Below, piece after piece: positions 931 through 22,091 of a stretch of 64,000 nucleotides of DNA. Source of the DNA: Anaerolineae bacterium (lineage in GTDB: Bacteria > Chloroflexota > Anaerolineae > Epilineales > JAHCIE01); the NCBI GenBank assembly GCA_034431435.1, contig DAOUDG010000084.1:78591-142590 (forward strand). Direction: 5' to 3'. The stretch's first letter is position 1. Each line of letters starts with the position of its first letter. The notes beneath the pieces were generated by a model. The model was given only the letters and a program-made list of their open reading frames with translations. It ran no database searches and was not told the origin of the DNA. The translations under genes were made by a program, and so were the position numbers.

Positions 931-934
<4 letters not shown>
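2..934 (+). CDS. glgX: Glycogen debranching enzyme GlgX/TreX, C-terminal part (5' end lies outside the window)
   Basis: Translation (FVACHDGFTLNDVVSYEHKHNEANGEDNRDGGDDNRTWNCGVEG...ILMGDEVRRTQLGNNNAYCHDDE) matches the conserved C-terminal catalytic/C-domain of GH13 debranching enzymes. The ORF runs in from the window edge. Confidence 0.8.
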
Positions 935-3723
<2,789 letters not shown>

Positions 3724-3740
3724 CGGCCTGCAATGGCGCC

Positions 3741-6374
3741 ATGTCTGCACCCATTCTAGCCACCAAGCTCTACATTCCCACACCCCCGGCCAGGGTGGTG
3801 CGCCGCCCGCGGCTGGTCGCGCGGCTGAACGAGGGCGTGCGCCACAAGCTGACCCTGGTCTCAGCCCCGGCCGGCTTCGGCAAGACGACCCTAGTCAGCG
3901 AGTGGGTTGCCGAGGCCGAGCGGCCGGTCGCCTGGCTGTCGCTAGACGGCGGGGACAACGACCCCGCCCGCTTCCTGGCTTACCTCGTAGCGGCCCTGCA
4001 AACCGTCACCCCGAAGGTGGGCGACAGGGTATTGCCCGTCCTCGAGTCCCCTCAGCCGCCACCGACCGAGTGGATGCTGACCACGTTGCTCAACGAAGTC
4101 GCCGCTCTCGCCGTTGAACTCGTCCTGGTCCTCGATGACTACCACGTCATCGAGGCGAAACCGGTGGACGAGGCCCTCCGTTTCCTGGTGACTCACCTGC
4201 CACCCCAGATGCGCCTGGTCATCGCCACCCGGGAGGATCCGCCGCTACCCCTGGCGCGGCTACGCGCCAGGGGCGAATTGACCGAAGTACGCGCCGCCGA
4301 CTTACGCTTTACCCCCGCCGAGGCCGCCCACTTCCTCAATGGGGCGATGGGTCTCGACCTCACGGCGGAGGACATCGCCGCGCTGGAGACTCGCACCGAG
4401 GGCTGGATCGCTGGCCTGCAACTGGCCGCGCTTTCGATGCAGGGTCACGACGACCCGGCCCGCTTCATCGAGTCCTTCACGGGCAGCCACCACTTCATCC
4501 AGGACTATCTCATCGAGGAGGTCTTGCAGCAGCAGCCCGACAACGTGCAGACGTTTCTGCTGCGCACCTCGATTCTCGACCGCCTGTGCGGCCCGCTGTG
4601 CGCCGCCGTCCTGAGTAGCGCCGCGACCGCCGCCCAGGACACCCTGGAATCCCTCGACCAGGCCAACCTCTTCGTCATCCCCCTGGACGACGAGCGTCGC
4701 TGGTACCGCTATCATCACCTGTTCCGGGAACTGCTGCGCCAGCGCCTCGGCCAGACCGGGGCAGACGTGGTAGAGTTGCACACCCACGCCAGCCAGTGGT
4801 ACGAGGACAATGGCCTGGCGATTGAGGCCTTCCACCACGCGGCGGCCGCCAATGATGTCGAGCGCGCGGAGCGGCTCATCAGCGGCGACGGGATTCCCCG
4901 CCACCTTCGCGGCGCGGTGACAGCCATCCTATCCTGGCTGTCATCGTTGCCCAAGAGCGTGTTGGACGCTCGGCCGGGGCTGTGGTGGCGCTATGCCTCG
5001 CTGCTGCTGGTCAGCGGTCAGACGACGGGGGTGGAAGAGAAACTCCAGGCGGCATTGGCTGCCCTGGGAAACGCGGCGGAGGACGCCGAGACCCGCGCCC
5101 TGGTCGGCCGCATCGCCACCGCACGGGGCGTGCTGGCTCTCACGCGCTACGATGTCGACGCCATGCTGACCCAGTCGCGCCTCGCCCTGGCGCACCTGCC
5201 CCCCGAAGACCTGACACAGCGAGCAAACGCGACCTGGATGCAGGGGCAGGCCTACCTGTGGCGAGGGGATCGAGGGGCGGCCCGCCAGGCCCTGACGGAT
5301 GCCGTATCCCTCGGCCAGGCGGCTGGCAGTGTCTTTGTCACCATGCTGGCAACCATCGTCCTGGGACACGTCCAGGAACTGGAAAACGACCTGCATCGAG
5401 CCGCCGACACGTACCAGCGCGCCTTGCAGATGGCCGGCGATCAGCCGCTGCAAATTGTCAACGAGGCGCATCTGGGCCTGGCCCGCATCCTCTACGAGTG
5501 GAACGACCTGGCGGCCGCCGAGGAACACGGGCGGCAAAGCCTGGACCTGGCGCGGCAGTACGACGCGGTTATCGACCGCTTCATCGTCTGCCAGGTGTTC
5601 CTGGCTCGGGTGCGCCTGGCCCAGGGCGATGTCGCGGGGGCCGCCGCGATGTTGGCCCAGGCCGCCCACGAGGCGCGCCAACGCAACTTCGTGCACCGTA
5701 TCCCCGATGTGGCCGCCGCCCAGGTGGCGGTCTTGCTGCGCCAGGGCGAACTGGCGGCAGCGGCGCGGCTTGTCGAGGCCCACGACCTCCCCATGAGCCG
5801 CGCCAGGGTGTCCCTGGCCCAGGGCGACCCGTCGGCCGCCCTCACGACCCTGGAACCGCTGCGCCGCCACGCCGAGAGCATGGGCTGGGCGGATGAGCGG
5901 CTCCAGGTCGCGGTCCTCCAGGCCGTTGCTCTGGATGCGCAGGGCGACCGGGACGCGGCGGTACGGACCCTCGATGACGCGCTGGCGCTGGCCGAGGCGG
6001 GCGGTTTCATCCGCATCTTTGTCGACGAAGGCCCCCCGATGGCCCAACTTCTGTTCGCGGCGGCGGCGCGGGGCAGCGCGCCGGAGTACGTTGGCCGACT
6101 TCGGGCCGCCTTCGCGACCGGCCAGCGAGCGACTGAACCGCCTGCCCCTCGTCTCCCCGCCTCCCCCGCCCACCCCCTGGCGGAGCCGTTGAGCGAACGC
6201 GAGCTAGAGGTACTCCGCCTCGTCGCCGAGGGCCTCTCCAATCGCGAGATTGGCGAGCGGTTGTTCCTCGCCTTGAATACGGTCAAGGGCTACAACCGGG
6301 TTATCTTCGAGAAGTTGCAGGTCGCAAGGCGGACCGAAGCGGTAGCCCGGGCACGCGAACTCGGCCTGCTATGA
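3741..6374 (+). CDS. LuxR-family large ATP-binding (LAL/MalT-like) transcriptional regulator
   Basis: N-terminal 'KLYIPTPP...LVSAPAGFGKTTL' P-loop NTPase typical of MalT/LAL regulators. TPR-like middle region. C-terminal LuxR HTH (LSERELEVLRLVAEGLSNREIGERLFLALNTVKGY). Confidence 0.85.
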   Translation: MSAPILATKLYIPTPPARVVRRPRLVARLNEGVRHKLTLVSAPAGFGKTTLVSEWVAEAERPVAWLSLDGGDNDPARFLAYLVAALQTVTPKVGDRVLPVLESPQPPPTEWMLTTLLNEVAALAVELVLVLDDYHVIEAKPVDEALRFLVTHLPPQMRLVIATREDPPLPLARLRARGELTEVRAADLRFTPAEAAHFLNGAMGLDLTAEDIAALETRTEGWIAGLQLAALSMQGHDDPARFIESFTGSHHFIQDYLIEEVLQQQPDNVQTFLLRTSILDRLCGPLCAAVLSSAATAAQDTLESLDQANLFVIPLDDERRWYRYHHLFRELLRQRLGQTGADVVELHTHASQWYEDNGLAIEAFHHAAAANDVERAERLISGDGIPRHLRGAVTAILSWLSSLPKSVLDARPGLWWRYASLLLVSGQTTGVEEKLQAALAALGNAAEDAETRALVGRIATARGVLALTRYDVDAMLTQSRLALAHLPPEDLTQRANATWMQGQAYLWRGDRGAARQALTDAVSLGQAAGSVFVTMLATIVLGHVQELENDLHRAADTYQRALQMAGDQPLQIVNEAHLGLARILYEWNDLAAAEEHGRQSLDLARQYDAVIDRFIVCQVFLARVRLAQGDVAGAAAMLAQAAHEARQRNFVHRIPDVAAAQVAVLLRQGELAAAARLVEAHDLPMSRARVSLAQGDPSAALTTLEPLRRHAESMGWADERLQVAVLQAVALDAQGDRDAAVRTLDDALALAEAGGFIRIFVDEGPPMAQLLFAAAARGSAPEYVGRLRAAFATGQRATEPPAPRLPASPAHPLAEPLSERELEVLRLVAEGLSNREIGERLFLALNTVKGYNRVIFEKLQVARRTEAVARARELGLL

Positions 6375-10119: not shown

Positions 10120-11115
10120 ATGAACGCAACGGTGTATACACAGTACGGACCACCCGAGGTGCTTCACTGCCAGGCAGTAGCCACGCCCCTGCCCACGGAC
10201 AACGAGATACAGGTGCGGGTCAGCGCCGCGTCCGTCAACTACGGGGACATCCTCGCCCGTGACTTCGGGAACCTCTCCCCGCGTGAGTTCAACATGCCCA
10301 TGCTGCTGTGGCTGCCGGCGCGGCTGAGCTTCGGGGTCCGCACGCCCCGCAAGCCCATCCTGGGCAACGAGTTTGCGGGGACCGTCGCGGCCGTGGGGGC
10401 CAGCGTCAGCCGCTTCAGGGTGGGCGATCGCGTGTTTGGCTATCTAGGCCCGCGCATGGGCGCGTACGCCGAGTACCTCTGTCTGCCCGAAGACGGAGCG
10501 GTCGCCCTGACGCCGCGCACCATGACCGACGCGGAAGCGGCGACCGTGCCCTACGGGGCATTGATGGCGTTGGGGCTACTGCGCAAAGTGGGCATCCAGC
10601 CAGGCCAGCGGGTGCTAGTCAATGGGGCCAGTGGTGGGATCGGGTCAGCCGCCGTCCAGCTCGCCAAGTACTGGGGCGCGGAGGTCACCGGCGTATGCAG
10701 CGCGCCCCGGCTGGCGATGGTGAAAGCCCTGGGGGCGGACAGAGTCATCGACTACACCCGCCAGGACTTCACGCAGCAGAACGAGACCTACGATCTCATC
10801 TTTGATGTGCTGGGGCGGAGTTCGTTTGCCCGCTGCAAGCGCGTGCTGACGGCGAACGGCGTCTATCTGCTGGCCAGCTTCAAGTCGAGGCAGCTCGGCG
10901 AGATGCTCTGGACCTCCGTCGCGGACTCTCAGAAAGTCGTGTGTGTGCTGGCCAGCGAGAAGGCCGACGATCTGGACTTCATCAGGCAACTCATCGAGGC
11001 CGGGAAGTACAGGGCCATCGTCGATCGCTGTTTTCCCCTGGCACAGGCCGCCGAGGCTCACAGGTACGTGGAGGATGGACATAAGCAGGGAGCCGTCGTC
11101 ATCACGATGGGCTGA
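10120..11115 (+). CDS. NADPH:quinone oxidoreductase / MDR family paralog
   Basis: MNATVYTQYGPPEVLH...VNGASGGIGSAAVQLAKYWGA. Paralog of the preceding gene. ORF opens at 10090 but the ATG at 10120 gives the canonical N-terminus. Confidence 0.8.
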   Translation: MNATVYTQYGPPEVLHCQAVATPLPTDNEIQVRVSAASVNYGDILARDFGNLSPREFNMPMLLWLPARLSFGVRTPRKPILGNEFAGTVAAVGASVSRFRVGDRVFGYLGPRMGAYAEYLCLPEDGAVALTPRTMTDAEAATVPYGALMALGLLRKVGIQPGQRVLVNGASGGIGSAAVQLAKYWGAEVTGVCSAPRLAMVKALGADRVIDYTRQDFTQQNETYDLIFDVLGRSSFARCKRVLTANGVYLLASFKSRQLGEMLWTSVADSQKVVCVLASEKADDLDFIRQLIEAGKYRAIVDRCFPLAQAAEAHRYVEDGHKQGAVVITMG

Positions 11116-11116
11116 C

Positions 11117-11143
11117 GCCCCCCGTGCGCGAAACGGGGGCTTG
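11117..11143 (+). terminator. GC-rich hairpin directly after the oxidoreductase stop (putative terminator)
   Basis: gccccccg-tgcgcgaaa-cgggggc immediately 3' of the TGA at 11113-11115. Only a weak T-tract (ttgtcg). Confidence 0.3.
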
Positions 11144-11288
11144 TCGCGCCCCGATGATGAAACCGCGCGGACGCAACCAGGCTTGGCGCAGCCGTCGGCG
11201 TCCCCCTATGACCATGATACCCCTCTAGGCGGGGTGTCCAATGGAGAACCGTTCACCCAACGGGAAGCTTAGGGGCGTGATGGCTGAC

Positions 11289-12077
11289 TCACCGGAAGTA
11301 GACGCGGCGACCCGTCAGGCGGCTGATCACCTGATGCAAGACGTAGATGACCACGCCGATTACCAGATCGATGACCAGGGTGAGGGTGAACGCAAACAGT
11401 AGCGTGTCGAGGGTGCGGCGAACCGCAGCCAGTAGCTCCGGCGGCGGCTGGCGGACGCCCGTCAGGATGACGACGATGGTAGCCAGGGCGATGAGGTAGA
11501 GGGCGGCCGCCCACCAGTCGCGCCGGTCGGACGCGCTCGGCATCAGGCTGTTGCTGATGCTAAACGTCAGGTACAGCCACAGCCAGGCGTCAGCCACGCG
11601 GAACAGGTCCGCCAGGTGGGTGACGACGGCGGTGATGATGCTCGTCGGCGGCAGATCGACCGCGAGCGCCTGGCGAAAGCCATAGTTGCCGATGAGGACA
11701 ATCGCGGCGGTGCCGAAGATAAACGGGGCGACACCAATCAGGCTGGCGCGAATCGGGTCGGTCTTGCCAATCATCACGTAACCCATCGTCACCTGCACCT
11801 GCTGGCCGCGAGTGACATGGCGCGACGGCCCCAGCGAGAACTGACCCGTGGGGACGAACAGCAGCTTGGCGGTCAACCAGTGGCTAAACTCGTGGAGGAA
11901 GATGCCCGGCGCGAGCACGAGGAAACGCAGCCAGATGGCGCGGTAGTCGCTGCCCAGGGTGATGACGCCCAGCGCGTGCAGGTGAATCATCACCCAGCGC
12001 TTGAGCAACGTGACAGGGACCATGAGCAGCCCCAGCCATAGCAGGCTGGTCCAAAGATCGGGCATGGCGGGCGTCAT
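11289..12077 (-). CDS. Integral membrane protein with intramembrane HExxH motif (putative membrane-embedded zinc metalloprotease-like, DUF3267-like)
   Basis: 262 aa, multiple TM helices, HEFSHWLTAKLL (HExxH) inside a hydrophobic segment. Confidence 0.55.
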   Translation of the reverse strand: MTPAMPDLWTSLLWLGLLMVPVTLLKRWVMIHLHALGVITLGSDYRAIWLRFLVLAPGIFLHEFSHWLTAKLLFVPTGQFSLGPSRHVTRGQQVQVTMGYVMIGKTDPIRASLIGVAPFIFGTAAIVLIGNYGFRQALAVDLPPTSIITAVVTHLADLFRVADAWLWLYLTFSISNSLMPSASDRRDWWAAALYLIALATIVVILTGVRQPPPELLAAVRRTLDTLLFAFTLTLVIDLVIGVVIYVLHQVISRLTGRRVYFR

Positions 12078-12093
12078 CAGCCAGTGGTGCTCA

Positions 12094-12163
12094 TTGGTAC
12101 GGCGGGACCAGGGACGGAGGACGAAGGACCACTAGCGACCAGCCCTTTGGTCCTTCGTCCCTG
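12094..12163. repeat. Long imperfect inverted repeat / hairpin (GGACCAGGGAC...GAAGGACCA : TGGTCCTTCGTCCCTGGTCC), member of a short intergenic repeat family
   Basis: About 24-bp stem with a 16-nt loop between the tpiA stop (12177, minus) and the start of 11289..12077. A degenerate copy sits at 60576-60645 after pcrA. Confidence 0.55.
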
Positions 12164-12176
12164 GTCCCTGGTCATC

Positions 12177-12941
12177 CTAGCCCTTCGCCTGGGCGGCGGC
12201 CTGGATGATGGCCGTGAAGTCCGCGCTCTTGAGGGCGGCGCCGCCGATCAGCCCGCCGTCGATGTCAGGCTCGCTCAGCAACTCCAGCGCGTTCGCCGCG
12301 TTCATCGAGCCACCGTACTGGATGCGGATGGCGTCGGCGACAGCGTGGTCGTACCGCTGGGCCAGGACGGCGCGAATCTCGCGGTGAACCGCGTTCGCGC
12401 CCTCCGGCGTCGCGGCGCGGCCCGTGCCGATGGCCCACACTGGCTCGTAGGCGACCACTGTGCCCTGCGCCTGCTCCGCGCTCAGCCCCTCGTAGGCGGC
12501 CCGCACCTGGCGCGCCACGACCGCACTGGTGTGGCCTGCCTCGTTCTCCTCCAGCGTCTCCCCGACGGCGATGATGGGGATGAGGTTGTGAGCCAGGGCC
12601 GCATGGACCTTCTTGTTCACTGTCTCATCGGTCTCGCCGAACATCTTGCGCCGCTCCGAGTGGCCGAGGATGACGTAGTCCACCAGACCTTGCAGCATGA
12701 CCGGCGTCACCTCGCCTGTATAGGCCCCCGACTTCTCCCAGTACATGTTCTGCGCGCCGACCTTGAGGAATGTCCCCTTCAGGCGCTCGGCGACAGGGTA
12801 GAGGGCCGTGAAGGGCGGACAGACGACCATGTCGACGCCCTGGACGCCCTCCAGGCTGATCAGCAACTCGTTGACCAGGGTCAACGCCTCCGCTGCGGTC
12901 TTATTGGCTTTCCAGTTTCCGGCAATGATAGGTTTGCGCAT
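12177..12941 (-). CDS. tpiA: Triosephosphate isomerase
   Basis: MRKPIIAGNWKANKT...IAYEPVWAIGTGRAATPEG...QYGGSMN: canonical TIM motifs. Confidence 0.95.
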   Translation of the reverse strand: MRKPIIAGNWKANKTAAEALTLVNELLISLEGVQGVDMVVCPPFTALYPVAERLKGTFLKVGAQNMYWEKSGAYTGEVTPVMLQGLVDYVILGHSERRKMFGETDETVNKKVHAALAHNLIPIIAVGETLEENEAGHTSAVVARQVRAAYEGLSAEQAQGTVVAYEPVWAIGTGRAATPEGANAVHREIRAVLAQRYDHAVADAIRIQYGGSMNAANALELLSEPDIDGGLIGGAALKSADFTAIIQAAAQAKG

Positions 12942-12950
12942 AGGGCCTCC

Positions 12951-15434
12951 TTAAGGCTCACGGGTTTCGATGTCGGCGAGGTCGCGTTTGATGACGACCA
13001 GCGCATAATCATCAAATTGAGGGGCATCCTCAGTGAAGGTTGTGACAGCGGCGATGATGGCCTCGATGATGTCGGCGGCGTTCTGGTTGTGATACGTATG
13101 GACCGTCTCAGCGAGACGCGCGTCGCCGAAGTCGGCCTCCTGTGGGTCGATGGCCTCAGTCACGCCGTCGGTATAGAGCACGAGCACATCGCCCAGGTTG
13201 AGAATCGTCTGGCACTCCTGCAACTGGATAGTATCCACCGCGCCGAGGACGATGCCTCGGCTCTCCAGGTATTCGGTAGTACCGGTGGCGGCGCGATAGA
13301 CCAGCGGCGGCGTGTGGCCGGCGTTGACGTAGGTGAGAGCGCCCGTCGCTGGCTCCAAGATACAGTAGCACAGGGTCACGAACATGTCGGCGCGCGTGTC
13401 GTTGAGCAGCAGCGCGTTGGCGCGGACCAGCGCCTCGGCGGGTGGGCGGCGGCCCAGCACCGAGGCGCGAATGGAACTCCGCGCCACGGCCATAAAAATG
13501 GCGGCCGGGATCCCCTTGTCCGACACATCGGCGATGACGAACCCCCAGCGCCCCTCTGTCAGGGCCAGGAAGTCATAGAAGTCGCCCGCCATTTCCAGGG
13601 CGGGCCGCCAGAAGGCCGCCGCCTCCCAGCCTTCGATCTGGGGCGGACTTTCGGGCATCAGCGACGACTGAATCTCGGCCGCCAGCGCCAGTTCCTGCTC
13701 AAGCCGCTGCCGCGCCAGCGTCTCCTCGTAGAGGCGCGCCTCCTCGATGGCGATGGCGATCTGGTCGGCCAGCGTCTGCAACACGAACAGGTCGTCGCGG
13801 TCAAAGGCGTTGAGGCGGCTGCTCTGCACGTCCAGCACACCCACCACCCGCGACTCTACCTTCAGGGGCACGGCCAGTTCAGACCTGGTGCCGCGCAGCA
13901 CGGCCTCTGGGTCGCGCACGTAGCGCGGCTCGGCGGCCACGTCGTTCGCCATCAGCGGCTCGGCCTGGTTGGCGACCCAACCAATGATACCCCGATCGGT
14001 AGGCACGATGTATCCCCGCGCGCGCCGCGCCTCATTCAGGTAGCCCGTGCTGGCGCGGAAGACGGCCTCGCCGCGGTCGTTGACGGTCAGAATCTGCACG
14101 AAATCATAGCCGAAGCTGGCCTGCACCAGCTGCACCACCCGGCTGAACAGGTCTTCCAGGTTGATGATCGCCGCCACCTGACGACTCACCTCGCTAATGG
14201 CGCTCAACTGGATAGCGCGCTTCCACTCACGCTCGTACAGGCGCGCATTCTCGACGCCCACGGCCAACTGGCTCGCCAGAGTGGTCATCATGCGCGCCTG
14301 GTTGTAGCTGAACGCCCCCGGCGCCGGACTCTGCACCAGGATGCCGCCGATGACATCGCGCCCTGACTGGAGGGGCACAGCCAGCACCGAGCGCGTGTCA
14401 GACGCGAGGGTCAGGCCGGGCAAGGCATCGGCGGCGGCGGTGGCGCGCAGCGCCTGCGCTTCGGGCGCCTCCCGCAGCCACTCGGTGACGCCAGCCAGCG
14501 GCATCTGGTCCAGGGGCTGCCGCTCACCGTTCTGCACCCACAGCGCCGGCCGTAGCGCGTTCTTCTCGCTGTCCAGCAACACCAGCCGGAAGTCGGAGCC
14601 GCTGACGATACGCGTCGTGTACTGGTAGGCCAGATCCGCCAGGCGCTTGACGTCCATCTGCGCGCCGACGATGGCCTGCCCCAGCTCCTCGAAGGTCGTC
14701 AGTTCCGTCACTCGCTCGCCCAGGGCCTGCCGTGTGCGGCCCAGGCTCTGGATGAGCAGGCTCACGGCCAGCAGCATCAGGGCCAGAATGCTGAACTCAG
14801 CTGGTCCCAGCACCGCATACACGGCCGCCATGAGCGGCGCGAAGGGCAGGGGAATCAGCTCCACCGCGATTGCGGTGGGTCCGATGCGCCGCAGCGTGCC
14901 CCACGCCGCCCGCCAGCCGTCGACGAGGGCCACGCGCAGGAACCAACCCACTGTGCCAATCATGAACCATGTCAGGAACAGCCCCAGCATGGGTAGGGTC
15001 TGGGGGATCTGGATGTGGCTGGGTGGGATGCGCCCCCCCAACGCCAGGTATACCCAGCCCCCCGCCAGAGCCATGATGGCGCTCAGGCCAGCCTCGAACA
15101 GGGGCGCTGCCACGTGAGTCCAGGCGTTGAACGGGTAACGGCGGAAGGTATGGGCCGTGAGATAGATGGTCTCGCTGCTGGCCGCGACCAGCGCGCCAGT
15201 GATGGGGCCGAACAGGAGCAGCGCCGCGATATCGACAATCCCCACCAGGCTGTGGGTCGCGTCGGGGACAATCCGAAACCCCGCCCGCTTGACCATCGTC
15301 GACAGGAGAATGAAGACGACCACCGCCAGTGGCGGCCCGGCGATGCCGTCGCGCAGAATGAGATAGGCCAGCGCGCCAAGCCCGCCGATGGCGACCAGCG
15401 TCTGGTAGATGCGCGCACCGAGAGTAAGTCTCAT
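12951..15434 (-). CDS. Membrane-anchored GAF-GAF-PP2C (SpoIIE/RsbU-like) serine phosphatase
   Basis: 827 aa. About 8 N-terminal TM helices, two GAF domains, C-terminal PP2C/SpoIIE block (AGDFYDFLALTEGRWGFVIADVSDKGIPAAIFMAVARS...LVLYTDGVTEA). Confidence 0.85.
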   Translation of the reverse strand: MRLTLGARIYQTLVAIGGLGALAYLILRDGIAGPPLAVVVFILLSTMVKRAGFRIVPDATHSLVGIVDIAALLLFGPITGALVAASSETIYLTAHTFRRYPFNAWTHVAAPLFEAGLSAIMALAGGWVYLALGGRIPPSHIQIPQTLPMLGLFLTWFMIGTVGWFLRVALVDGWRAAWGTLRRIGPTAIAVELIPLPFAPLMAAVYAVLGPAEFSILALMLLAVSLLIQSLGRTRQALGERVTELTTFEELGQAIVGAQMDVKRLADLAYQYTTRIVSGSDFRLVLLDSEKNALRPALWVQNGERQPLDQMPLAGVTEWLREAPEAQALRATAAADALPGLTLASDTRSVLAVPLQSGRDVIGGILVQSPAPGAFSYNQARMMTTLASQLAVGVENARLYEREWKRAIQLSAISEVSRQVAAIINLEDLFSRVVQLVQASFGYDFVQILTVNDRGEAVFRASTGYLNEARRARGYIVPTDRGIIGWVANQAEPLMANDVAAEPRYVRDPEAVLRGTRSELAVPLKVESRVVGVLDVQSSRLNAFDRDDLFVLQTLADQIAIAIEEARLYEETLARQRLEQELALAAEIQSSLMPESPPQIEGWEAAAFWRPALEMAGDFYDFLALTEGRWGFVIADVSDKGIPAAIFMAVARSSIRASVLGRRPPAEALVRANALLLNDTRADMFVTLCYCILEPATGALTYVNAGHTPPLVYRAATGTTEYLESRGIVLGAVDTIQLQECQTILNLGDVLVLYTDGVTEAIDPQEADFGDARLAETVHTYHNQNAADIIEAIIAAVTTFTEDAPQFDDYALVVIKRDLADIETREP

Positions 15435-15449
15435 GCCACCTTCGAAGGC

Positions 15450-16211
15450 TTAGCCAAAGGCCGCAACGGCCTGCTCTTCCGTGTCGTACATGGGCAGAAT
15501 CATGTCAAAGCCTGCCATGCGGAAAATCTTGCGCACCGCCGGGTTGAGGTTGCACAGCTTCACATCGCCCTGGTTGCGCCTCGCTCGCCGTACCGCCAGC
15601 AGTAGCGTGCGCAGGCCGGTGGAACTGACATAGGTCACCTGCTGGAAGTCAACGACCAGACGATGAAGGTTCTCGTTCGCCAGGTTCTGCAGTTCAGCCT
15701 CCAGATACTGGGAGCCGTTGGCGTCGAGCCGCCCGCGCGGTACGACGATCGTGACCCCGTGGCCGTGGCGCGACGGGTGGCTGGACACGGCCCGCCGCCG
15801 CCGCACCATGATGAGTTCGTTCCATCCCTCCTCATCGAAGCGAAAGTCTACCTGGTCCATCAACCGGCGCATGAAGTATAGCCCCAGGCCGCCTATCTCG
15901 CGCTTCTCCAGCGGGGCAGAGATGTCGGGTTCCGTCACCAGGTTGGGGTCGAAGGGGCGGCCGTGGTCGCGCAGCGTGACGATGAAGTCCTCCCCGCGCC
16001 GCTCGGCAATGACCTCGATCGGGCCTTCCTGCGCCTGGTAGGCGTGCTCGATGATGTTGGTCACGGCCTCATCGACGGCCATCTGGATGTAGTAGGCCTC
16101 GTGCTCCGTCATGCCGAAATTGGCCGTCACGTGGCCGATGAACTCGGCAATGCGCGCCAGGTTTTCGGGTCGGCTGGTGACGTTGAGGACGTAGCGGTCG
16201 TTCATAGTCAT
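15450..16211 (-). CDS. Fusion protein: RsbW-like anti-sigma-factor serine kinase (HATPase_c) + STAS anti-sigma-factor antagonist domain
   Basis: N-terminus (MTMNDRYVLNVTSRPENLARIAEFIGH...DEAVTNIIEHAY...REIGGLGLYFMRRLMD) is RsbW/SpoIIAB-like. C-terminus (VTIVVPRGRLDANGSQYLEAEL...VDFQQVTYVSSTGLRTLLLA...FDMILPMYDTEEQAVAAF) is STAS with the conserved phosphorylatable Ser. Start ATG at 16211 has a GGGAG RBS; the ORF-track start at 16289 is upstream of it. Confidence 0.8.
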   Translation of the reverse strand: MTMNDRYVLNVTSRPENLARIAEFIGHVTANFGMTEHEAYYIQMAVDEAVTNIIEHAYQAQEGPIEVIAERRGEDFIVTLRDHGRPFDPNLVTEPDISAPLEKREIGGLGLYFMRRLMDQVDFRFDEEGWNELIMVRRRRAVSSHPSRHGHGVTIVVPRGRLDANGSQYLEAELQNLANENLHRLVVDFQQVTYVSSTGLRTLLLAVRRARRNQGDVKLCNLNPAVRKIFRMAGFDMILPMYDTEEQAVAAFG

Positions 16212-16292
16212 GGTAGGCTCCCAGAACCACAGAGATGGGGGGCTGGCGACTATCGGCCACGCATTGGCCGCCAGTCGCCAAACACCCATCCG

Positions 16293-18854
16293 TCAGCCGC
16301 TTGCGGCCAGTTTTCTCAGAATGACCAGCGTGATGTCATCAAAGGCCGGCTGACCCGCCGCGAAATCGGCGACAGCGCCGACCACTCTCCCTGCCACGTC
16401 GCAGGCCAGCGCCTGGTGCGCGGCGCGGGCCACGGCGAGCAGACGCTCCTCGCCAAAGGCGCCACCCCGACTGTCGATGGCCTCGGTCACGCCGTCGGTG
16501 TACAGCAGCAGCAGGTCGCCCGCCGCCAGGGATGCCGTAGCCTGCTGCCATTCCATGTCGGGCAGAATGCCCAACGCCGGCCCGTGCGCCTCCTGGCCCA
16601 CCCATTCCATGCGCCCATCGGCGCGCAGCAGGAGGGGCGGGTTATGGCCCGCGTTGACGTAGCACACCGTCCCGTCCGGGGCGAGCGTCATGTAGAAGGC
16701 GGTCACGAACATGCTCGACTCAGCATCGGCGGCGATGAGCCGGTTCGATTGGCCGATGGCCCTGGCCGGCGTCGCGTCAGCCAGGATGCTCGCCCGCAGC
16801 AGACTACGGGACACGGCCATGAAGATGGCGGCCGGCGCGCCCTTGTCCGACACGTCGGCGATGACGACCCCCAACCGTCCATCATCCAGCGGCACGAAGT
16901 CGTAAAAGTCGCCCGTCACCACCCGCGCCGGTTCCCAGTGGGCGCACACATCCCAGCCCTCGACGCCGGGCGCAGCGTCGGGTAGGAAGCTGCGTTGGAT
17001 GTGCCGCGCCAGCTCCAGTTCGCGCGCCAGCCGCTGCGCCTCGATCTCCGCCCGCCGTAGTCGCTCGTTCTCGATGGCGATGGCCGTCTGGTTCGCCATG
17101 CCCGCCGCGATCTCCAGCAGACGCGGCGTAAAGCGCGGGTCCTCCAGAGAGGGATCGAGCACCATAGCTCCCACCAGCAGGCCGTGGGCGACCAGGGGGA
17201 CCAACAGGGCCTGCTCCACCTGGAGGGCATCTAGCAAGGCCACGTCGTCGCCCTGGCTGCGCTGGACGAGGATCGGGCTGCGCTCGGCCAGCAGCCGCTC
17301 GAACGCGCGGGTCTGCTCGCTGGTCAGGGCGCGGAAGCGGGCCTCACGGGTGGCGGAGCCGTCCAGCGCCGTGACCAACTGGCGCGGGGCGAAACGCGCG
17401 GCCTCAGAGTCCCACAGGAAGAAGGCGCATTGGCTGGCCCCCAGAAACATGGGTGCGATGCGTCCGACCCGCTCCAGGATATCCTCGATGGTTTCGGCGT
17501 CCCGCAAGTTCTCGGCCACCTGGAGCAGCGCGTTGCGATGCCACGCCTCTTCGGCCTTCTCCTCGTACTCGCGGGCGTTGCGCACGGCCAGCGCCGCCTG
17601 CGCCGCGATAAGGCCCAACAGGCGCGCATCGTCGTCGTCGAAGTGGCTCGGAACCCTGCTATTCACGGACAGGACACCGATGCACTCGCCGTCGAGTTCC
17701 ACCGGCACGGCAACCGCCGACCGCCAGCCGTGCAGCCGACTCAGGTCGGCCTCCACCGGCTCGACCGCCTGTAGCTCGGCCTCGACCACCGGCGCCCGCG
17801 ACGCGAACACCCTCTCCAGCAGGCCGCCCGGCGCCCGCCGCACTTCGCCGTCGCGCCGGATGTCCTCTCGCCACCCCCACGTCGCCAGCATCGAAAGGTC
17901 GTTGGCCTCGCCGTACAGGAGGATGGCGGCGGCGTCGCCGCGCAGCACACTGGCAGCCTCCTCGACGACCATCTCCGTCACCTGCTGCGGGTCGAGGCTG
18001 GACAGCAGGGCCTGCGACAGCCGCAGCAGCATCGCCTGCTCGCGCAGGTGGCGGCCGCGCGCCACATCCAGCAGCCGGGCGCGCTCAATCGCCATGCCCA
18101 GCTGATCGCCGACAGCTCCCAATACGTTCAGGTCGGCGGCGCTGAAGATCTCGCGCGCGGGGGCGGTGACGTTCAGAATGCCGAGCATACGCTTCCGGGC
18201 GCGGATAGGGATGCTGGCGTGGTAGCGGAGGCCGCGCGTGTCGCCCGGCGCATCGGCCAGGCGACTGCACTGGATGATGTTGACAGCCCGCTTCAGCTGC
18301 CCCGTGCGCAACTGGTACTGGCATTCACACTCGGGCAGGCGTCGCAACTCGCGGGCGTCGTCCTCGGCCAGGGCGGGCGGCAGGCCGATAGCGTCGATGG
18401 GCACAAACGTGCCCGTCTCGTCGAGTAGGAACACCCAGCCGGTACTCAGCTCCAGGAGGTCCGTCACCTCGGCCAGGGCGGCCGCCACGGCCTCTTCGAC
18501 CGAGACGGCCTCGTTCAGCCGTTCCGCCACCGAGCGCAGGGTGTGCAGTTCGCGCAACGCGCGCTCCAGGCCCGCGCGCTCATCCAGCCCGCTCATCGCT
18601 TCAGTCTGTTCCTGCCACGCGACAAAGTCGCGCACCGGCGCCAGGCGCTGGCGCAGCGTCTCGCGATCTGGCCGGGTCGTTGCCGCCAGATGGGCGCGAT
18701 ACTTCACCAGGGCCGTGCGGGAGGCGGCCGCCGTAGCATCCGTGGCGCGCAGCCAGTCGAGAAAGGCTGCGACCTCTTTCAGCGCGGCCGACGCCGCCTC
18801 CGGCGCGATGTGCCTCTCTTGTAGGATGCGCGCGTAGTCTGACAAATGCTCCAT
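16293..18854 (-). CDS. Cytoplasmic multi-GAF PP2C (SpoIIE/RsbU-like) serine phosphatase
   Basis: 853 aa. About 90-aa helical N-terminus, then about three GAF domains, then PP2C (TGDFYDFVPLDDGRLGVVIADVSDKGAPAAIFMAVSRS...LLLYTDGVTEAID). Its stop overlaps the next gene's start (16289/16293). Confidence 0.85.
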   Translation of the reverse strand: MEHLSDYARILQERHIAPEAASAALKEVAAFLDWLRATDATAAASRTALVKYRAHLAATTRPDRETLRQRLAPVRDFVAWQEQTEAMSGLDERAGLERALRELHTLRSVAERLNEAVSVEEAVAAALAEVTDLLELSTGWVFLLDETGTFVPIDAIGLPPALAEDDARELRRLPECECQYQLRTGQLKRAVNIIQCSRLADAPGDTRGLRYHASIPIRARKRMLGILNVTAPAREIFSAADLNVLGAVGDQLGMAIERARLLDVARGRHLREQAMLLRLSQALLSSLDPQQVTEMVVEEAASVLRGDAAAILLYGEANDLSMLATWGWREDIRRDGEVRRAPGGLLERVFASRAPVVEAELQAVEPVEADLSRLHGWRSAVAVPVELDGECIGVLSVNSRVPSHFDDDDARLLGLIAAQAALAVRNAREYEEKAEEAWHRNALLQVAENLRDAETIEDILERVGRIAPMFLGASQCAFFLWDSEAARFAPRQLVTALDGSATREARFRALTSEQTRAFERLLAERSPILVQRSQGDDVALLDALQVEQALLVPLVAHGLLVGAMVLDPSLEDPRFTPRLLEIAAGMANQTAIAIENERLRRAEIEAQRLARELELARHIQRSFLPDAAPGVEGWDVCAHWEPARVVTGDFYDFVPLDDGRLGVVIADVSDKGAPAAIFMAVSRSLLRASILADATPARAIGQSNRLIAADAESSMFVTAFYMTLAPDGTVCYVNAGHNPPLLLRADGRMEWVGQEAHGPALGILPDMEWQQATASLAAGDLLLLYTDGVTEAIDSRGGAFGEERLLAVARAAHQALACDVAGRVVGAVADFAAGQPAFDDITLVILRKLAASG

Positions 18855-18898
18855 GACCAGGCCACTCTTCTACGGCGGCCAGCCAGCCGCCGAATGGG

Positions 18899-19234
18899 CT
18901 AGAAACTGCCCACGGCCTCCACGGAGTCGTCATAGATGTTGAAGATGCGGGTGAAGCCCACGAGTTCGATGGTGTCCTTGACGTAGGGCTGGAGTCCCGA
19001 CAGTCGCAGGTCGCCGCGATTCCAGCGCTTGACCGACTTGCGGACGGCCAACAGGACGCGCAAGCCGGCGGAGCTGATGTACGTGACGGCAGACATGTCG
19101 AGGACAAGCTTGAAGTGGCCGCCGTTGATGAGATCGTCCAGGGTCTTCTGCAGCTGCGGCGCGGTCTGGTGGTCGATGCGGCCCACCGGAGCCACCAACG
19201 TGACGCGCTTGAGGTCTTTGGTGCTGATTTCCAT
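18899..19234 (-). CDS. STAS-domain anti-sigma-factor antagonist (RsbV/SpoIIAA-like)
   Basis: 111 aa: VLDMSAVTYISSAGLRVLLA...FNIYDDSVEAV, a classic SpoIIAA fold signature with a conserved Ser. Confidence 0.85.
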   Translation of the reverse strand: MEISTKDLKRVTLVAPVGRIDHQTAPQLQKTLDDLINGGHFKLVLDMSAVTYISSAGLRVLLAVRKSVKRWNRGDLRLSGLQPYVKDTIELVGFTRIFNIYDDSVEAVGSF

Positions 19235-19339
19235 CCAGGCCTCCTAAGGGGGAAATTAGGCATGTCGGGGTCGCCCCCATTATATCACGGCCTGGAAGCC
19301 AGGCGCAAACAGTTTGGCGGAAAGTACGTTGGAACAAGC

Positions 19340-20506
19340 TCAGTCGGCGCGCTCATGTACCATCAGCGCCAGAATCAGCGCCGATATCAGCGTCAGTCCG
19401 GCGGCCAGCGCCACGTTGCCCCACAGCCCCACCGTTGCGTACAGTGGCGGCCCCACCAGCGCGCCAATCACGCGCCCTGTCTGATTACCGGTGCTGTTGA
19501 TGGACACGGACGTGGCCCGCGCTGTCGGCGCCGACTCGCTGACCAGCGGGATCGTGGACACCAGGGTGAACTCGAAGCCGAGCAGGATGAGGGCCAAGGT
19601 GAACACCGCCCCAACCAGACCGTAGCCCGCCAGGAAGGGCAGCAGCGAGTACGCCACCGTCAGGGCCAGCAGCCCCAGCAGGATACCCCGCTTCTTGCCG
19701 ATGCGATCGAGGAAGGCGCTCGATAGCCCCTCGCCGCCCAACTCGGCCAGGCCCGTGGCGATGGATACCGAGCCGAGGGCGGCTGCTCCCAGGCCGAACT
19801 GCCCTTCCAGCCACGCCCCATAGACGATGAACACGATTTCATTCGCCAGCACCAGGCACAGCATCATCGGCCACATCCAACGCACATTGGGCACGCGCAA
19901 CGCCCGCCCCAGGCTACTGAGGATGTGACCGCCGTCGTGGTGGGGCGCGTGGTCGCCGACGGGGAAGGCCCACACAGCCACGACCAGACTCAGCGCGCCC
20001 AGCGCGGCCAGTCCCCAGTAGGGGGCCTGCCAGCCGTAGCGGGCGATGGTCCAGCCCACCAGGGGGATGCCTACCAGGGCGGCCAGCGCCCAGGGTATCT
20101 CCAGGATGCCCGTCGCCCGCGCGCGCATCGCATAGGGCACGCGGTCGCTTATATAGGCAATCGACGTCGGATCGAGGATGACCTTCGCCAGACCCATGCC
20201 GACGAAGCCGACGGCGAACACGGCGAACTGGCTGAAGCCCGCCGCCAGCAGCGCCGTCACGACGAACAGGCCGAGGGCGACCAGGATCAGGCTGCGGCGG
20301 CGGTGGCGGTCGGCCAGCGGCCCGACGCCCAGGCTGGCGTAGCCCGTCGCCGCCCGTAGCGCCATCAACGAGGCCGCCGTCTCCAGGGGCACGCCCAGGC
20401 CGCGCGCGATGAAGGGCAGGAAGGGGTACGCCATGCGCGTCGCCGTGTTGAGCGTCGTCCGCGCCAACACCATCGCCGCCATCGGTTTGCGGAGGGAGGC
20501 GGTCAC
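19340..20506 (-). CDS. MFS transporter
   Basis: 388 aa, 12 predicted TM helices, MFS-type loop motifs (GPLADRHRRRS). Confidence 0.8.
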   Translation of the reverse strand: MTASLRKPMAAMVLARTTLNTATRMAYPFLPFIARGLGVPLETAASLMALRAATGYASLGVGPLADRHRRRSLILVALGLFVVTALLAAGFSQFAVFAVGFVGMGLAKVILDPTSIAYISDRVPYAMRARATGILEIPWALAALVGIPLVGWTIARYGWQAPYWGLAALGALSLVVAVWAFPVGDHAPHHDGGHILSSLGRALRVPNVRWMWPMMLCLVLANEIVFIVYGAWLEGQFGLGAAALGSVSIATGLAELGGEGLSSAFLDRIGKKRGILLGLLALTVAYSLLPFLAGYGLVGAVFTLALILLGFEFTLVSTIPLVSESAPTARATSVSINSTGNQTGRVIGALVGPPLYATVGLWGNVALAAGLTLISALILALMVHERAD

Positions 20507-20591
20507 GAGGGAGGATACCTGTGAGCAATTTGAATGATACAGGCCCGGCGGACATTGCGCCTGCCGGGCCTTGTCGTTGATGGCGGCGCGG

Positions 20592-21821
20592 CTACTGCAC
20601 CGTCACCTGCACCGAGAAGGTCTCGGCGGGGGGGACGCCGGTTTCCCACGGGCGGCGGTAGACCATCTGTAGGGTGGTAGCGCCCGCGCCCGTCGGCTGG
20701 AAGCGAAAGGTCTGCGTGCCTGACGCGCCGATGGCTGCGCTGGCTGGGGTGTACACCGGGTCGCCCAGTTGGGTGAGCAGCGCGTTGGCCGGATCGACCT
20801 GCCAGGTGTAGCCCGTGGTCGGGTTACCCGCCAGGCTGACGACCAGGGTGTTAGCCTGCTGCATGCTGACGCTGCCGCCATTGTTGGCGTCAGTCACTGT
20901 CACATCCTGCCCCGCGCTGGGTGAGGGCGTCGCGGTGGCAGCGGGCGTAGCAGCGGCGGCGGGCGCATCGGCGATGACCACCCGCACCGAGAACGTCCTG
21001 GCCGGGGCGACGCCGGTCTCCCAGGGGCGAACATACACCATCTCCAGCGTGGTCGAGCCGGCGCCCGTTGGCGTGAAGAGGAACGTCTGAACGCCGCCGA
21101 CGCCGGGTGGAGCGTCGGCGGGGCGGGTGTAGGTGGGGTCGCCCTGCGGCTGCAAGAGTGGGTTGGGCGCGGCCTGCCAGGTGTAGCCCGTCGAGGTATT
21201 CGCGCTCAGGTTCACCCGCAGCGTGTCGGTCGGCCTGAGGCGCACCTCGCCGCCGCTATCCTGCTCAGTGACGGTGACGACCGCGCTGGTCGGGCGGCCT
21301 GGCGTCGCCCCACTGGCGGTGAAGGCCTGCTTGACCTGATCGACGGTCATGAACAGCGACTCGTAGGTCGTGGCGGCCGCGCTGCCGTCAGGGTAGGGGT
21401 TCGACTGGGGCAGAAAGGCGACGAAGACGCTCGTCGCTGTCTCGGCGATGGGGACGCCGGGTAGGGCAATCGGCTGGCTCGCCAGGTTGTCCCAATAGGC
21501 CCTGTCGTAGACGTAGATGCTCAACAGCGGCGCTTCGGTCCCGCCGCCGCTGGGCGTGTACACCCAATCGGTGATGAACTTCGTGCCCGGCCGCCGCTGG
21601 TCGGCCGGCGCGCCCCAGTACTCGTACCACCGAAAGCCGTGGCTCACCCATGTCGCGGGTAGCGCCAGGCTGTAGCCTGCCTGCGGGTTGGTATATACGC
21701 CATTCTGAACGCTACCCTGGGGTGCGCCGCTGGGACGGCTGCCCTGGGCGTGACTCGTACCCGCTGCCACGGCGAGTAGCGCGACCGCGACAATCACCGC
21801 CAGTCTCACGCGCGTTGCCAT
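20592..21821 (-). CDS. Secreted protein with two tandem chagasin-family (MEROPS I42) cysteine-peptidase-inhibitor-like domains
   Basis: Signal peptide (MATRVRLAVIVAVALLAVAAGTSHA). Domain 1 approx. nt 20973-21281 and domain 2 approx. nt 20595-20906 each carry the chagasin loop motifs NxxTGYTWQ (NTSTGYTW / NPTTGYTW), GxGG/GASG and RPWE (VYVRPWETG / VYRRPWETG). About 150-aa N-terminal domain of unknown function. Confidence 0.65.
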   Translation of the reverse strand: MATRVRLAVIVAVALLAVAAGTSHAQGSRPSGAPQGSVQNGVYTNPQAGYSLALPATWVSHGFRWYEYWGAPADQRRPGTKFITDWVYTPSGGGTEAPLLSIYVYDRAYWDNLASQPIALPGVPIAETATSVFVAFLPQSNPYPDGSAAATTYESLFMTVDQVKQAFTASGATPGRPTSAVVTVTEQDSGGEVRLRPTDTLRVNLSANTSTGYTWQAAPNPLLQPQGDPTYTRPADAPPGVGGVQTFLFTPTGAGSTTLEMVYVRPWETGVAPARTFSVRVVIADAPAAAATPAATATPSPSAGQDVTVTDANNGGSVSMQQANTLVVSLAGNPTTGYTWQVDPANALLTQLGDPVYTPASAAIGASGTQTFRFQPTGAGATTLQMVYRRPWETGVPPAETFSVQVTVQ

Positions 21822-22091
21822 CGTGCCTCCTCGTTAGCCGCGCTACCTGGTGGGTTGGGCCTCAGACATCCATCTCGCCCAGCGTCAGGATGCGCCAGTG
21901 CGTGACACGGCGCAACATTGTTCGCCTGGAGTCAGGCGCTCTGCCTGGCGGATTATCGCCGCAAGTTCCCTCGACGCCATGTTTCGCCCCCTGTCCCAAC
22001 GGCTCGTCGCCGCCCAACCTCAATTATACGGCAAGCGCCGGGCGGCGCGAACAGCTGGCTTCGTCGCCTCGACGCGGGCATAGGCCCGCCA

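Follow-up and report, generated by a model that had tools for sequence, protein, structure and literature searches.

The window analysed here, a stretch of 64 kb of DNA from an Anaerolineae (Chloroflexota) genome, encodes a protein in which a serine kinase domain of the RsbW/SpoIIAB type is joined in a single polypeptide to a STAS domain resembling the antagonists RsbV and SpoIIAA. This two-domain architecture is genuine, conserved and abundant, and apparently unstudied. The fusion gene belongs to a four-gene cluster with a stand-alone STAS gene and two genes for PP2C phosphatases (Table 1). Guided by the domains present, the conservation of catalytic and acceptor residues and the conserved gene neighbourhood, we lean, with a little better than even confidence, towards a partner-switching cluster in which the fusion would be an RsbW-like kinase carrying a tethered RsbV-like antagonist.

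Table 1. Coordinates of the cluster genes, of the domains and motifs of the fusion, and of the regions compared in a distant subfamily
Feature	Coordinates	Strand	Description or basis
Kinase-STAS fusion gene	15450..16211	(-)	Pfam HATPase_c_2 + STAS; 253 aa plus stop
RsbW/SpoIIAB-type GHKL serine-kinase domain	15798..16199	(-)	residues ~5-138; Pfam, Foldseek
STAS (anti-sigma-factor-antagonist) domain	15453..15788	(-)	residues ~142-253; Pfam, Foldseek
Predicted phospho-acceptor Ser197	codon 15623..15621	(-)	alignment to SpoIIAA Ser58
Kinase N-box E48/N52	16070..16056	(-)	
Kinase G1 region		(-)	D82/G84 (D82-H-G84)
Kinase G2-box G107-G110	15893..15882	(-)	
Stand-alone STAS protein, 111 aa, first cluster gene	18899..19234	(-)	Pfam STAS E 2.1e-21
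Cytoplasmic GAFx3-SpoIIE (PP2C) phosphatase, 853 aa	16293..18854	(-)	Pfam, SpoIIE E 1e-49
Membrane-GAFx2-SpoIIE (PP2C) phosphatase, 827 aa	12951..15434	(-)	Pfam, SpoIIE E 1.6e-50
ECF-adjoining subfamily regions	L010 5305-6864; L011 5349-6801; L012 1471-3013		

Domain composition and conserved residues of the fusion

An earlier reading made from the sequence only had described a single chain that starts with a HATPase_c kinase and ends with a STAS domain, and had proposed to check this with domain HMMs. Both domains score above their Pfam cutoffs, with E-values far beyond chance: in the numbering of the longest reading frame (279 aa), HATPase_c_2 (PF13581) covers residues 38-162 (E 2.9e-27, 95.6 bits for a cutoff of 27.4) and STAS (PF01740) residues 177-274 (E 1.9e-20, 73 bits for a cutoff of 22.6). 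The C-terminal half is indeed STAS, and it also passes the NCBIfam model of anti-sigma factor antagonists, TIGR00377 (73.9 bits, cutoff 53.45). The N-terminal half matches the NCBIfam equivalog models of RsbW and SpoIIAB with E-values of 1e-12 to 1e-16, at scores under their cutoffs (NF003144 for RsbW, 59.3 bits against 145; TIGR01925 for SpoIIAB, 47.9 bits against 135), which makes it a relative of these kinases and not an orthologue. In a sequence search of the PDB, residues ~150-253 matched SpoIIAA, TM1442 and RsbV, and residues ~8-124 matched RsbW (6m36_A, E 2e-8) and SpoIIAB. Judged by these comparisons, the fusion is related to RsbW/SpoIIAB and to RsbV/SpoIIAA without being an orthologue of either pair.

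Two ATG codons are candidate starts of the minus-strand reading frame that stops at 15450: one at 16289 (16289..15450) and one at 16211, which gives 253 aa. We prefer the latter because a GGGAG Shine-Dalgarno motif precedes it with a 6-nt spacer, and because the N-termini of the full-length homologues, of ~253 aa, all fall at the alignment column of this start. The start at 16289 was rejected, as the 26 residues that it adds are without counterpart in homologues. The length of 254 aa given previously is off by one, since the 254 codons include the stop. Between the stop codon of the upstream PP2C gene and the preferred start, 81 nt (16212-16292) are open in frame from the ATG at 16289; the corresponding gap in the related locus L003 is of 1 nt only.

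GHKL kinases are defined by an N-box (E..N), a G1 motif (DxG) and a G2 motif (GxGxG-like). The N-box and the G2-box (G107-G108-L-G110) are intact in the query and the G1 region is partly so. The motif VSSTGLR, in which the acceptor serine had been placed by the sequence-only reading, spans residues 195-201. In the HMMER alignment to 1auz, Ser197 (in YVSSTGLR) stands opposite Ser58 of SpoIIAA, the established phospho-acceptor of that protein.

Conservation of these residues was followed in 73 sequences, namely 72 representatives of 50%-identity clusters and the query. E48 and N52 of the N-box and G107, G108 and G110 of the G2-box are present in all 73. D82 of the G1 region is found in 71/73 and G84 in 49/73, with Ser or Ala taking the place of G84 in roughly one third of the family. 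Position 197 is Ser or Thr in 71/73, in agreement with the proposed acceptor. The conservation of E48, N52, D82, G107-G108-x-G110 and Ser/Thr197 shows that purifying selection acts on catalysis and on the acceptor alike. It is also the strongest indirect sign that the STAS attached to the kinase would be a real phosphorylation substrate.

Predicted structure and linker

An AlphaFold model computed from 38 fusion sequences has a mean pLDDT of 91.2 and a pTM of 0.68. In this model the helix 197-212 begins at Ser197, to be compared with the acceptor Ser58 of SpoIIAA at the N-terminus of helix 2. With Foldseek, the kinase half is matched to SpoIIAB, RsbW and UsfX (TMt 0.77-0.91) and the STAS half to SpoIIAA/RsbV (TMt ~0.82); the halves match separately, and no solved chain spanning both was retrieved.

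The junction is compact: the kinase ends with strand 131-138 and STAS opens only a few residues later with strand 142-146, at a pLDDT of ~89-90 throughout. From M135 to the GRLD motif there are 24 residues in the query, for a family median of 31 and a range of 11-40. As a full STAS N-terminus takes ~17 of those residues, judged from the free STAS, the linker would amount to ~4 residues in the query and to ~10 in a typical member. With such a short linker Ser197 may not reach the ATP site of its own chain, the pTM of 0.68 leaving the orientation of the two domains unfixed. RsbW and SpoIIAB are dimers. Ser197 may be phosphorylated in cis, but only where the way the domains dock allows it, or in trans within a homodimer.

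Organization of the cluster

The four genes run co-directionally and tightly on the minus strand from 19234 to 12951, in the order free STAS, GAFx3-PP2C, kinase::STAS and membrane-GAFx2-PP2C. Kinase, STAS and PP2C, the components of a partner switch, are encoded together, an association that is kept in six related loci (L002, L003, L004, L006, L007 and L009). Elsewhere in the 64-kb window no kinase, STAS or PP2C domains were found, and its STAS domains number two. The gene of the 827-aa phosphatase begins 15 nt past the fusion stop codon; its product starts with a ~240-aa domain that displays ~7 hydrophobic segments. The PP2C metal-binding motifs GDFYD, ADVSDKG, TDGVTEA and FDD, read from the translations, are kept in both phosphatases.

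PP2C genes on both sides of the fusion, one for a membrane protein and one for a cytoplasmic protein with three GAF domains, had already been recognized, and Pfam agrees with this GAF-SpoIIE composition. The membrane domain stands too, the eight transmembrane segments attributed to it being an approximate count. The earlier description of the module had left out the free STAS gene, 44 nt upstream of the GAFx3-PP2C gene. Its product has its own acceptor, Ser55 in ISSAGLR, and is 42% identical to the fused STAS. It is encoded upstream of the fusion in five of the six related Anaerolineae-like loci inspected as well as in the window, and across loci its acceptor Ser is invariant and its C-terminus VEAVGSF conserved.

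No sigma factor gene or other evident output partner is found within ~10 kb of the cluster in the window, where the neighbours comprise an MFS transporter, a chagasin-type inhibitor protein, polysaccharide genes, tpiA and dehydrogenases. A promoter and terminator scan of positions 11000-22000 gave nothing over the shuffled background.

The triosephosphate isomerase gene tpiA (12177-12941, minus strand) starts 9 nt after the stop codon of the membrane GAF-PP2C gene and looks co-transcribed with it. This linkage is kept in L003 (11249-12007), a relative with 64% identity, but not in more distant loci, and is therefore probably a lineage-specific gene order. Just downstream of tpiA, 11289-12077 (minus strand) encodes a multi-pass membrane protein of 262 aa that contains an HEFSH motif and resembles Peptidase_M50, the site-2 protease family, only weakly and below threshold. 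On the other side, 20592-21821 (minus strand) encodes a 409-aa protein with two peptidase-inhibitor domains of the chagasin family (I42; Pfam E 8e-47) and an apparent signal-like hydrophobic segment at its N-terminus. Further away, a gene for a GH63/MGH1-like glycoside hydrolase (930 aa) and then one for an 877-aa MalT-type AAA-TPR-LuxR regulator occupy 931-6374 on the plus strand; this pair looks like a carbohydrate-utilisation regulon unrelated to the fusion.

Related loci

The neighbourhoods compared were those of relatives 37-64% identical to the fusion. In L003, L004/L005, L006, L007 and L009, a free STAS gene (111-116 aa) is followed by the fusion and then by a GAF-SpoIIE phosphatase gene (821-1159 aa), which overlaps the fusion gene by 4 nt in L003, L004 and L009. 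Synteny with the window is identical in L002 and L003: the extra GAFx3-PP2C is common to L003 and the close relative L002, and tpiA is also present in L003. The related Anaerolineae-like loci inspected were without a sigma factor gene. A HEAT-repeat protein of ~360 aa, which could be a partner or an output, is encoded directly upstream of the free STAS in L004 (5995-7086), L005 (390-1481) and L007 (611-1693); it is not present in the window.

Two other settings were met. In L008 (232-7774), a HAMP-SpoIIE gene stands ahead of the fusion, no free STAS gene is nearby, and MscS and trehalose genes (TreT-like, trehalose-phosphatase, GT20) adjoin, which suggests an osmotic-stress context. The fusions of L010-L012 form a distant subfamily (~32% identity, ~260-287 aa), again with no free STAS nearby. 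They are all divergently oriented beside an operon headed by an ECF sigma factor gene and ending, in the two loci long enough to show it (L010 and L011), with PrsW protease and SpoIIE genes. The ECF sigma factor may there be under the control of the RsbW-type fusion.

A proposed partner switch with a tethered antagonist

In partner switches, phosphorylation inactivates the STAS antagonist and frees the kinase/anti-sigma domain. We infer every biochemical step of the cycle that follows, and the very existence of a target. The kinase domain, using ATP, would phosphorylate the tethered Ser197, either within its own chain or in trans between the two chains of an RsbW-type homodimer, and probably also Ser55 of the free STAS. 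The phosphorylated STAS would then leave the docking face of the kinase, which would become free to hold a target, perhaps a sigma factor, perhaps some other protein, whose gene would lie elsewhere. Either PP2C, once its own sensor is triggered, would strip the phosphate, the inputs being perceived by cytoplasmic GAF domains in one case and by a membrane domain together with GAF domains in the other. The dephosphorylated tethered STAS, present at very high local concentration, would rebind and displace the target. Such a tether would hold kinase and antagonist at a 1:1 ratio and shield them from paralogous modules.

The conserved catalytic motifs and acceptor Ser fit a phosphorylation of the fused STAS. 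The resemblance of each half to solved SpoIIAB/RsbW and SpoIIAA/RsbV structures also speaks for a partner switch, as do the conservation of the fusion among full-length homologues over 27-93% identity and the linkage, in five of the six related loci and in the window, to a GAF-SpoIIE gene downstream and a free STAS gene upstream. Further points in its favour are the precedent of Rv1364c and the faster evolution of the fused STAS compared with the free STAS and the kinase domain across six loci; the latter, suggestive only in so small a sample, would be expected if the tether relaxes the need for high affinity. Four points count against it: no sigma factor or other obvious target was found within ~10 kb in the window, nor in the related Anaerolineae-like loci; the linker is so short that Ser197 may be out of reach of its own ATP site; the conserved free STAS with its acceptor Ser could be the main substrate; and G84 of the G1-box is not universal. 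The sequence-only reading had called the fusion a self-inactivating switch. This wording is inexact, because autophosphorylation would switch off the antagonist and release the kinase, in other words reset the switch. That interpretation is supported in part: the fusion is genuine and conserved, self-inactivation is not retained, and the idea has a precedent.

The free STAS (19234..18899) could instead be the real diffusible substrate and output, as are HsbA, SypA and BtrV, with the fused STAS acting as a pseudo-substrate, a timer or a dimerisation element that sets kinase activity. We consider this possible, although rather unlikely. The co-occurrence of the free STAS with the fusion, its invariant serine and its conserved C-terminus are in line with such a role. 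It is also the most conserved part of the module, with a mean pairwise identity across six loci of 53%, against 47% in the kinase domain and 34% in the fused STAS. In this small sample, suggestive only, the slow evolution of the free copy would be expected if it must satisfy several partners. Published systems include cases where one kinase has two STAS substrates and cases where the output is not a sigma factor (Anabaena All4160, HsbR/HsbA, SypE/SypA). However, the fused STAS keeps Ser or Thr at the acceptor position in 71 of the 73 sequences, and it must act alone in the distant subfamilies, where no free STAS lies near L008 and L010-L012.

A further proposal, which we regard as speculative and improbable, would give a role to both STAS domains. 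The free STAS, the fusion and the GAF-PP2C would form a sigma-independent switch in which the nearly rigid tethered STAS, trans-phosphorylated across the dimer, would serve as an intramolecular competitor or timer, gating the free STAS as the true output carrier to a non-sigma target. If this were true, the module would be a two-antagonist comparator integrating two phosphatase inputs. To our knowledge, no such comparator has been described for any partner switch.

More doubtful still is a stressosome-like scheme, in which an RsbT-like kinase would be held by an RsbS/RsbR-like STAS and, once released, would activate the downstream PP2C, as RsbT does with RsbU. The gene order STAS, kinase, PP2C does resemble rsbS-rsbT-rsbU, and the PP2C appears translationally coupled to the fusion through the 4-nt overlaps in L003, L004 and L009. 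Yet the kinase half is closest to RsbW (59 bits with NF003144; 6m36_A, E 2e-8) and to SpoIIAB, and no match to RsbT was reported in the PDB, NCBIfam or Foldseek comparisons. The two STAS domains of the window include no RsbR-like sensor-STAS protein, and the PP2Cs carry N-terminal GAF domains, not the RsbT-binding N-domain of RsbU. A covalently tethered kinase, moreover, makes release impossible. The set of RsbT-like kinase, RsbR-type sensor-STAS and RsbS that marks a stressosome module is not found here.

Abundance of kinase-STAS fusions

Searches for the same architecture in other genomes, suggested at the outset, showed that it is widespread. A first homology search returned 37 clusters (90% identity), 35-93% identical to the query and all of ~250 aa with both Pfam domains. 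Their named members come from Anaerolineae/Chloroflexi MAGs and carry the NCBI name 'anti-sigma factor antagonist'. The closest relative, P0001, is 93% identical and occurs on 24 contigs. An exhaustive HMMER scan of 1.84 billion representatives of 50%-identity clusters gave 46 matches at E <= 1e-30. The best 150 clusters of that scan comprised 76 kinase-STAS proteins (median 264 aa), five kinase-STAS-STAS, five STAS-kinase and several giant multi-STAS proteins. With a profile built from 73 divergent fusions, at least 404 clusters (90% identity) were obtained at E <= 1e-20, and both domains were present in 120/120 clusters among the matches listed. A scan of genome contigs found matches in two close Anaerolineae MAGs only.

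An artefact, in which a frameshift or a mistake in sequencing or assembly had joined separate rsbW and rsbV genes, has in its favour the abundance of RsbW-only homologues of ~140 aa, but is refuted by the conservation data and is practically impossible: the continuous ~250-aa architecture recurs in 37 and then at least 404 clusters, hundreds of independent sequences from independent assemblies (NCBI, JGI, ENA, Logan), P0001 recurs on its 24 contigs, L002 and L003 have identical synteny, and the junction is modelled at a pLDDT of ~89-90.

Pfam scans of selected matches revealed a range of arrangements, including SpoIIE-kinase-STAS, kinase-STAS-STAS, kinase-HAMP-SpoIIE-STASx3, STAS-kinase and STASx3-kinase, so that the association of an RsbW-type kinase with STAS in one chain appears as a recurrent theme. 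Some of these are giant single-chain partner-switch proteins, such as P0124 (1511 aa; kinase-HAMP-SpoIIE-STASx3), in which an entire signalling module is contained in one polypeptide, or P0132 (563 aa; STASx3-kinase). In P0130 (1438 aa), a sequence search places matches to the kinase and STAS halves of the query in the same order as in P0124.

Comparison with known systems

The closest sequence and fold matches for each half are the Bacillus pairs RsbW-RsbV and SpoIIAB-SpoIIAA, with which the system shares a conserved N-box, G2-box and acceptor Ser and PP2C genes alongside. Unlike in these switches, kinase and antagonist are here covalently joined through a linker of a few residues, the operon is without a sigma factor gene, and the kinase half scores under the RsbW/SpoIIAB equivalog cutoffs.

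The nearest precedent for the fusion itself is M. tuberculosis Rv1364c. Passages of two articles (PMC7693655, PMC9138534) describe it as a single PAS-PP2C-GHKL kinase-STAS chain and, quoting Greenstein 2009, King-Scott 2011 and Misra 2019, report that its kinase domain phosphorylates its own STAS at Ser600 and that its own PP2C reverses this modification. Both proteins unite an RsbW-type kinase and a STAS antagonist in one polypeptide and in the same order. The two differ in that our protein has two domains only, instead of four in a single chain, while sensor and PP2C reside apart from it in two further proteins whose inputs come through GAF or membrane domains. In addition, the module described here contains a conserved extra free STAS and shows no visible link to SigF or to another sigma factor. 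Rv1364c was not a direct match in the PDB sequence search; SpoIIE-kinase-STAS proteins resembling it are found among the homologues (P0262, P0206). By analogy, the fusion would work like the C-terminal half of Rv1364c. Neither the sharing of a chain by kinase and STAS nor the autophosphorylation of a STAS Ser is new, both being documented for Rv1364c in the passages cited.

Other systems distribute the same parts differently. In P. aeruginosa HsbR/HsbA and V. fischeri SypE/SypA, as here, partner-switch components are fused in multidomain proteins, STAS is the phosphorylated element and the output is not always an adjacent sigma factor. HsbR and SypE, however, combine the kinase with a phosphatase and a receiver domain and leave the STAS substrate as a separate protein, whereas here the kinase is fused to STAS and the phosphatases are free. 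Anabaena HenR/All4160 is likewise described as a system, one with multiple STAS proteins and no sigma factor beside them, in which an RsbW-like kinase phosphorylates a STAS, a PP2C reverses the reaction and the targets are non-sigma; there, STAS is fused to an output enzyme and not to the kinase.

Public sequence data hold many such fusions and Rv1364c offers a studied precedent, so that the fusion is a modest variant and no surprise. A full-text literature search, of incomplete coverage, returned no paper specific to the two-domain kinase-STAS family.

Significance

Partner switches are, beside two-component systems, one of the main routes of bacterial signalling by Ser/Thr phosphorylation. 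As the design principle is established by Rv1364c and the component families belong to the textbook, what is gained here is incremental and not conceptual. The family is nevertheless large, with hundreds of clusters found mainly in uncultured Chloroflexota-like organisms, and a minimal two-domain protein uniting kinase and substrate would be a handy object for questions of phosphorylation in cis or in trans, of the effect of a tether on kinetics and of insulation between paralogues.
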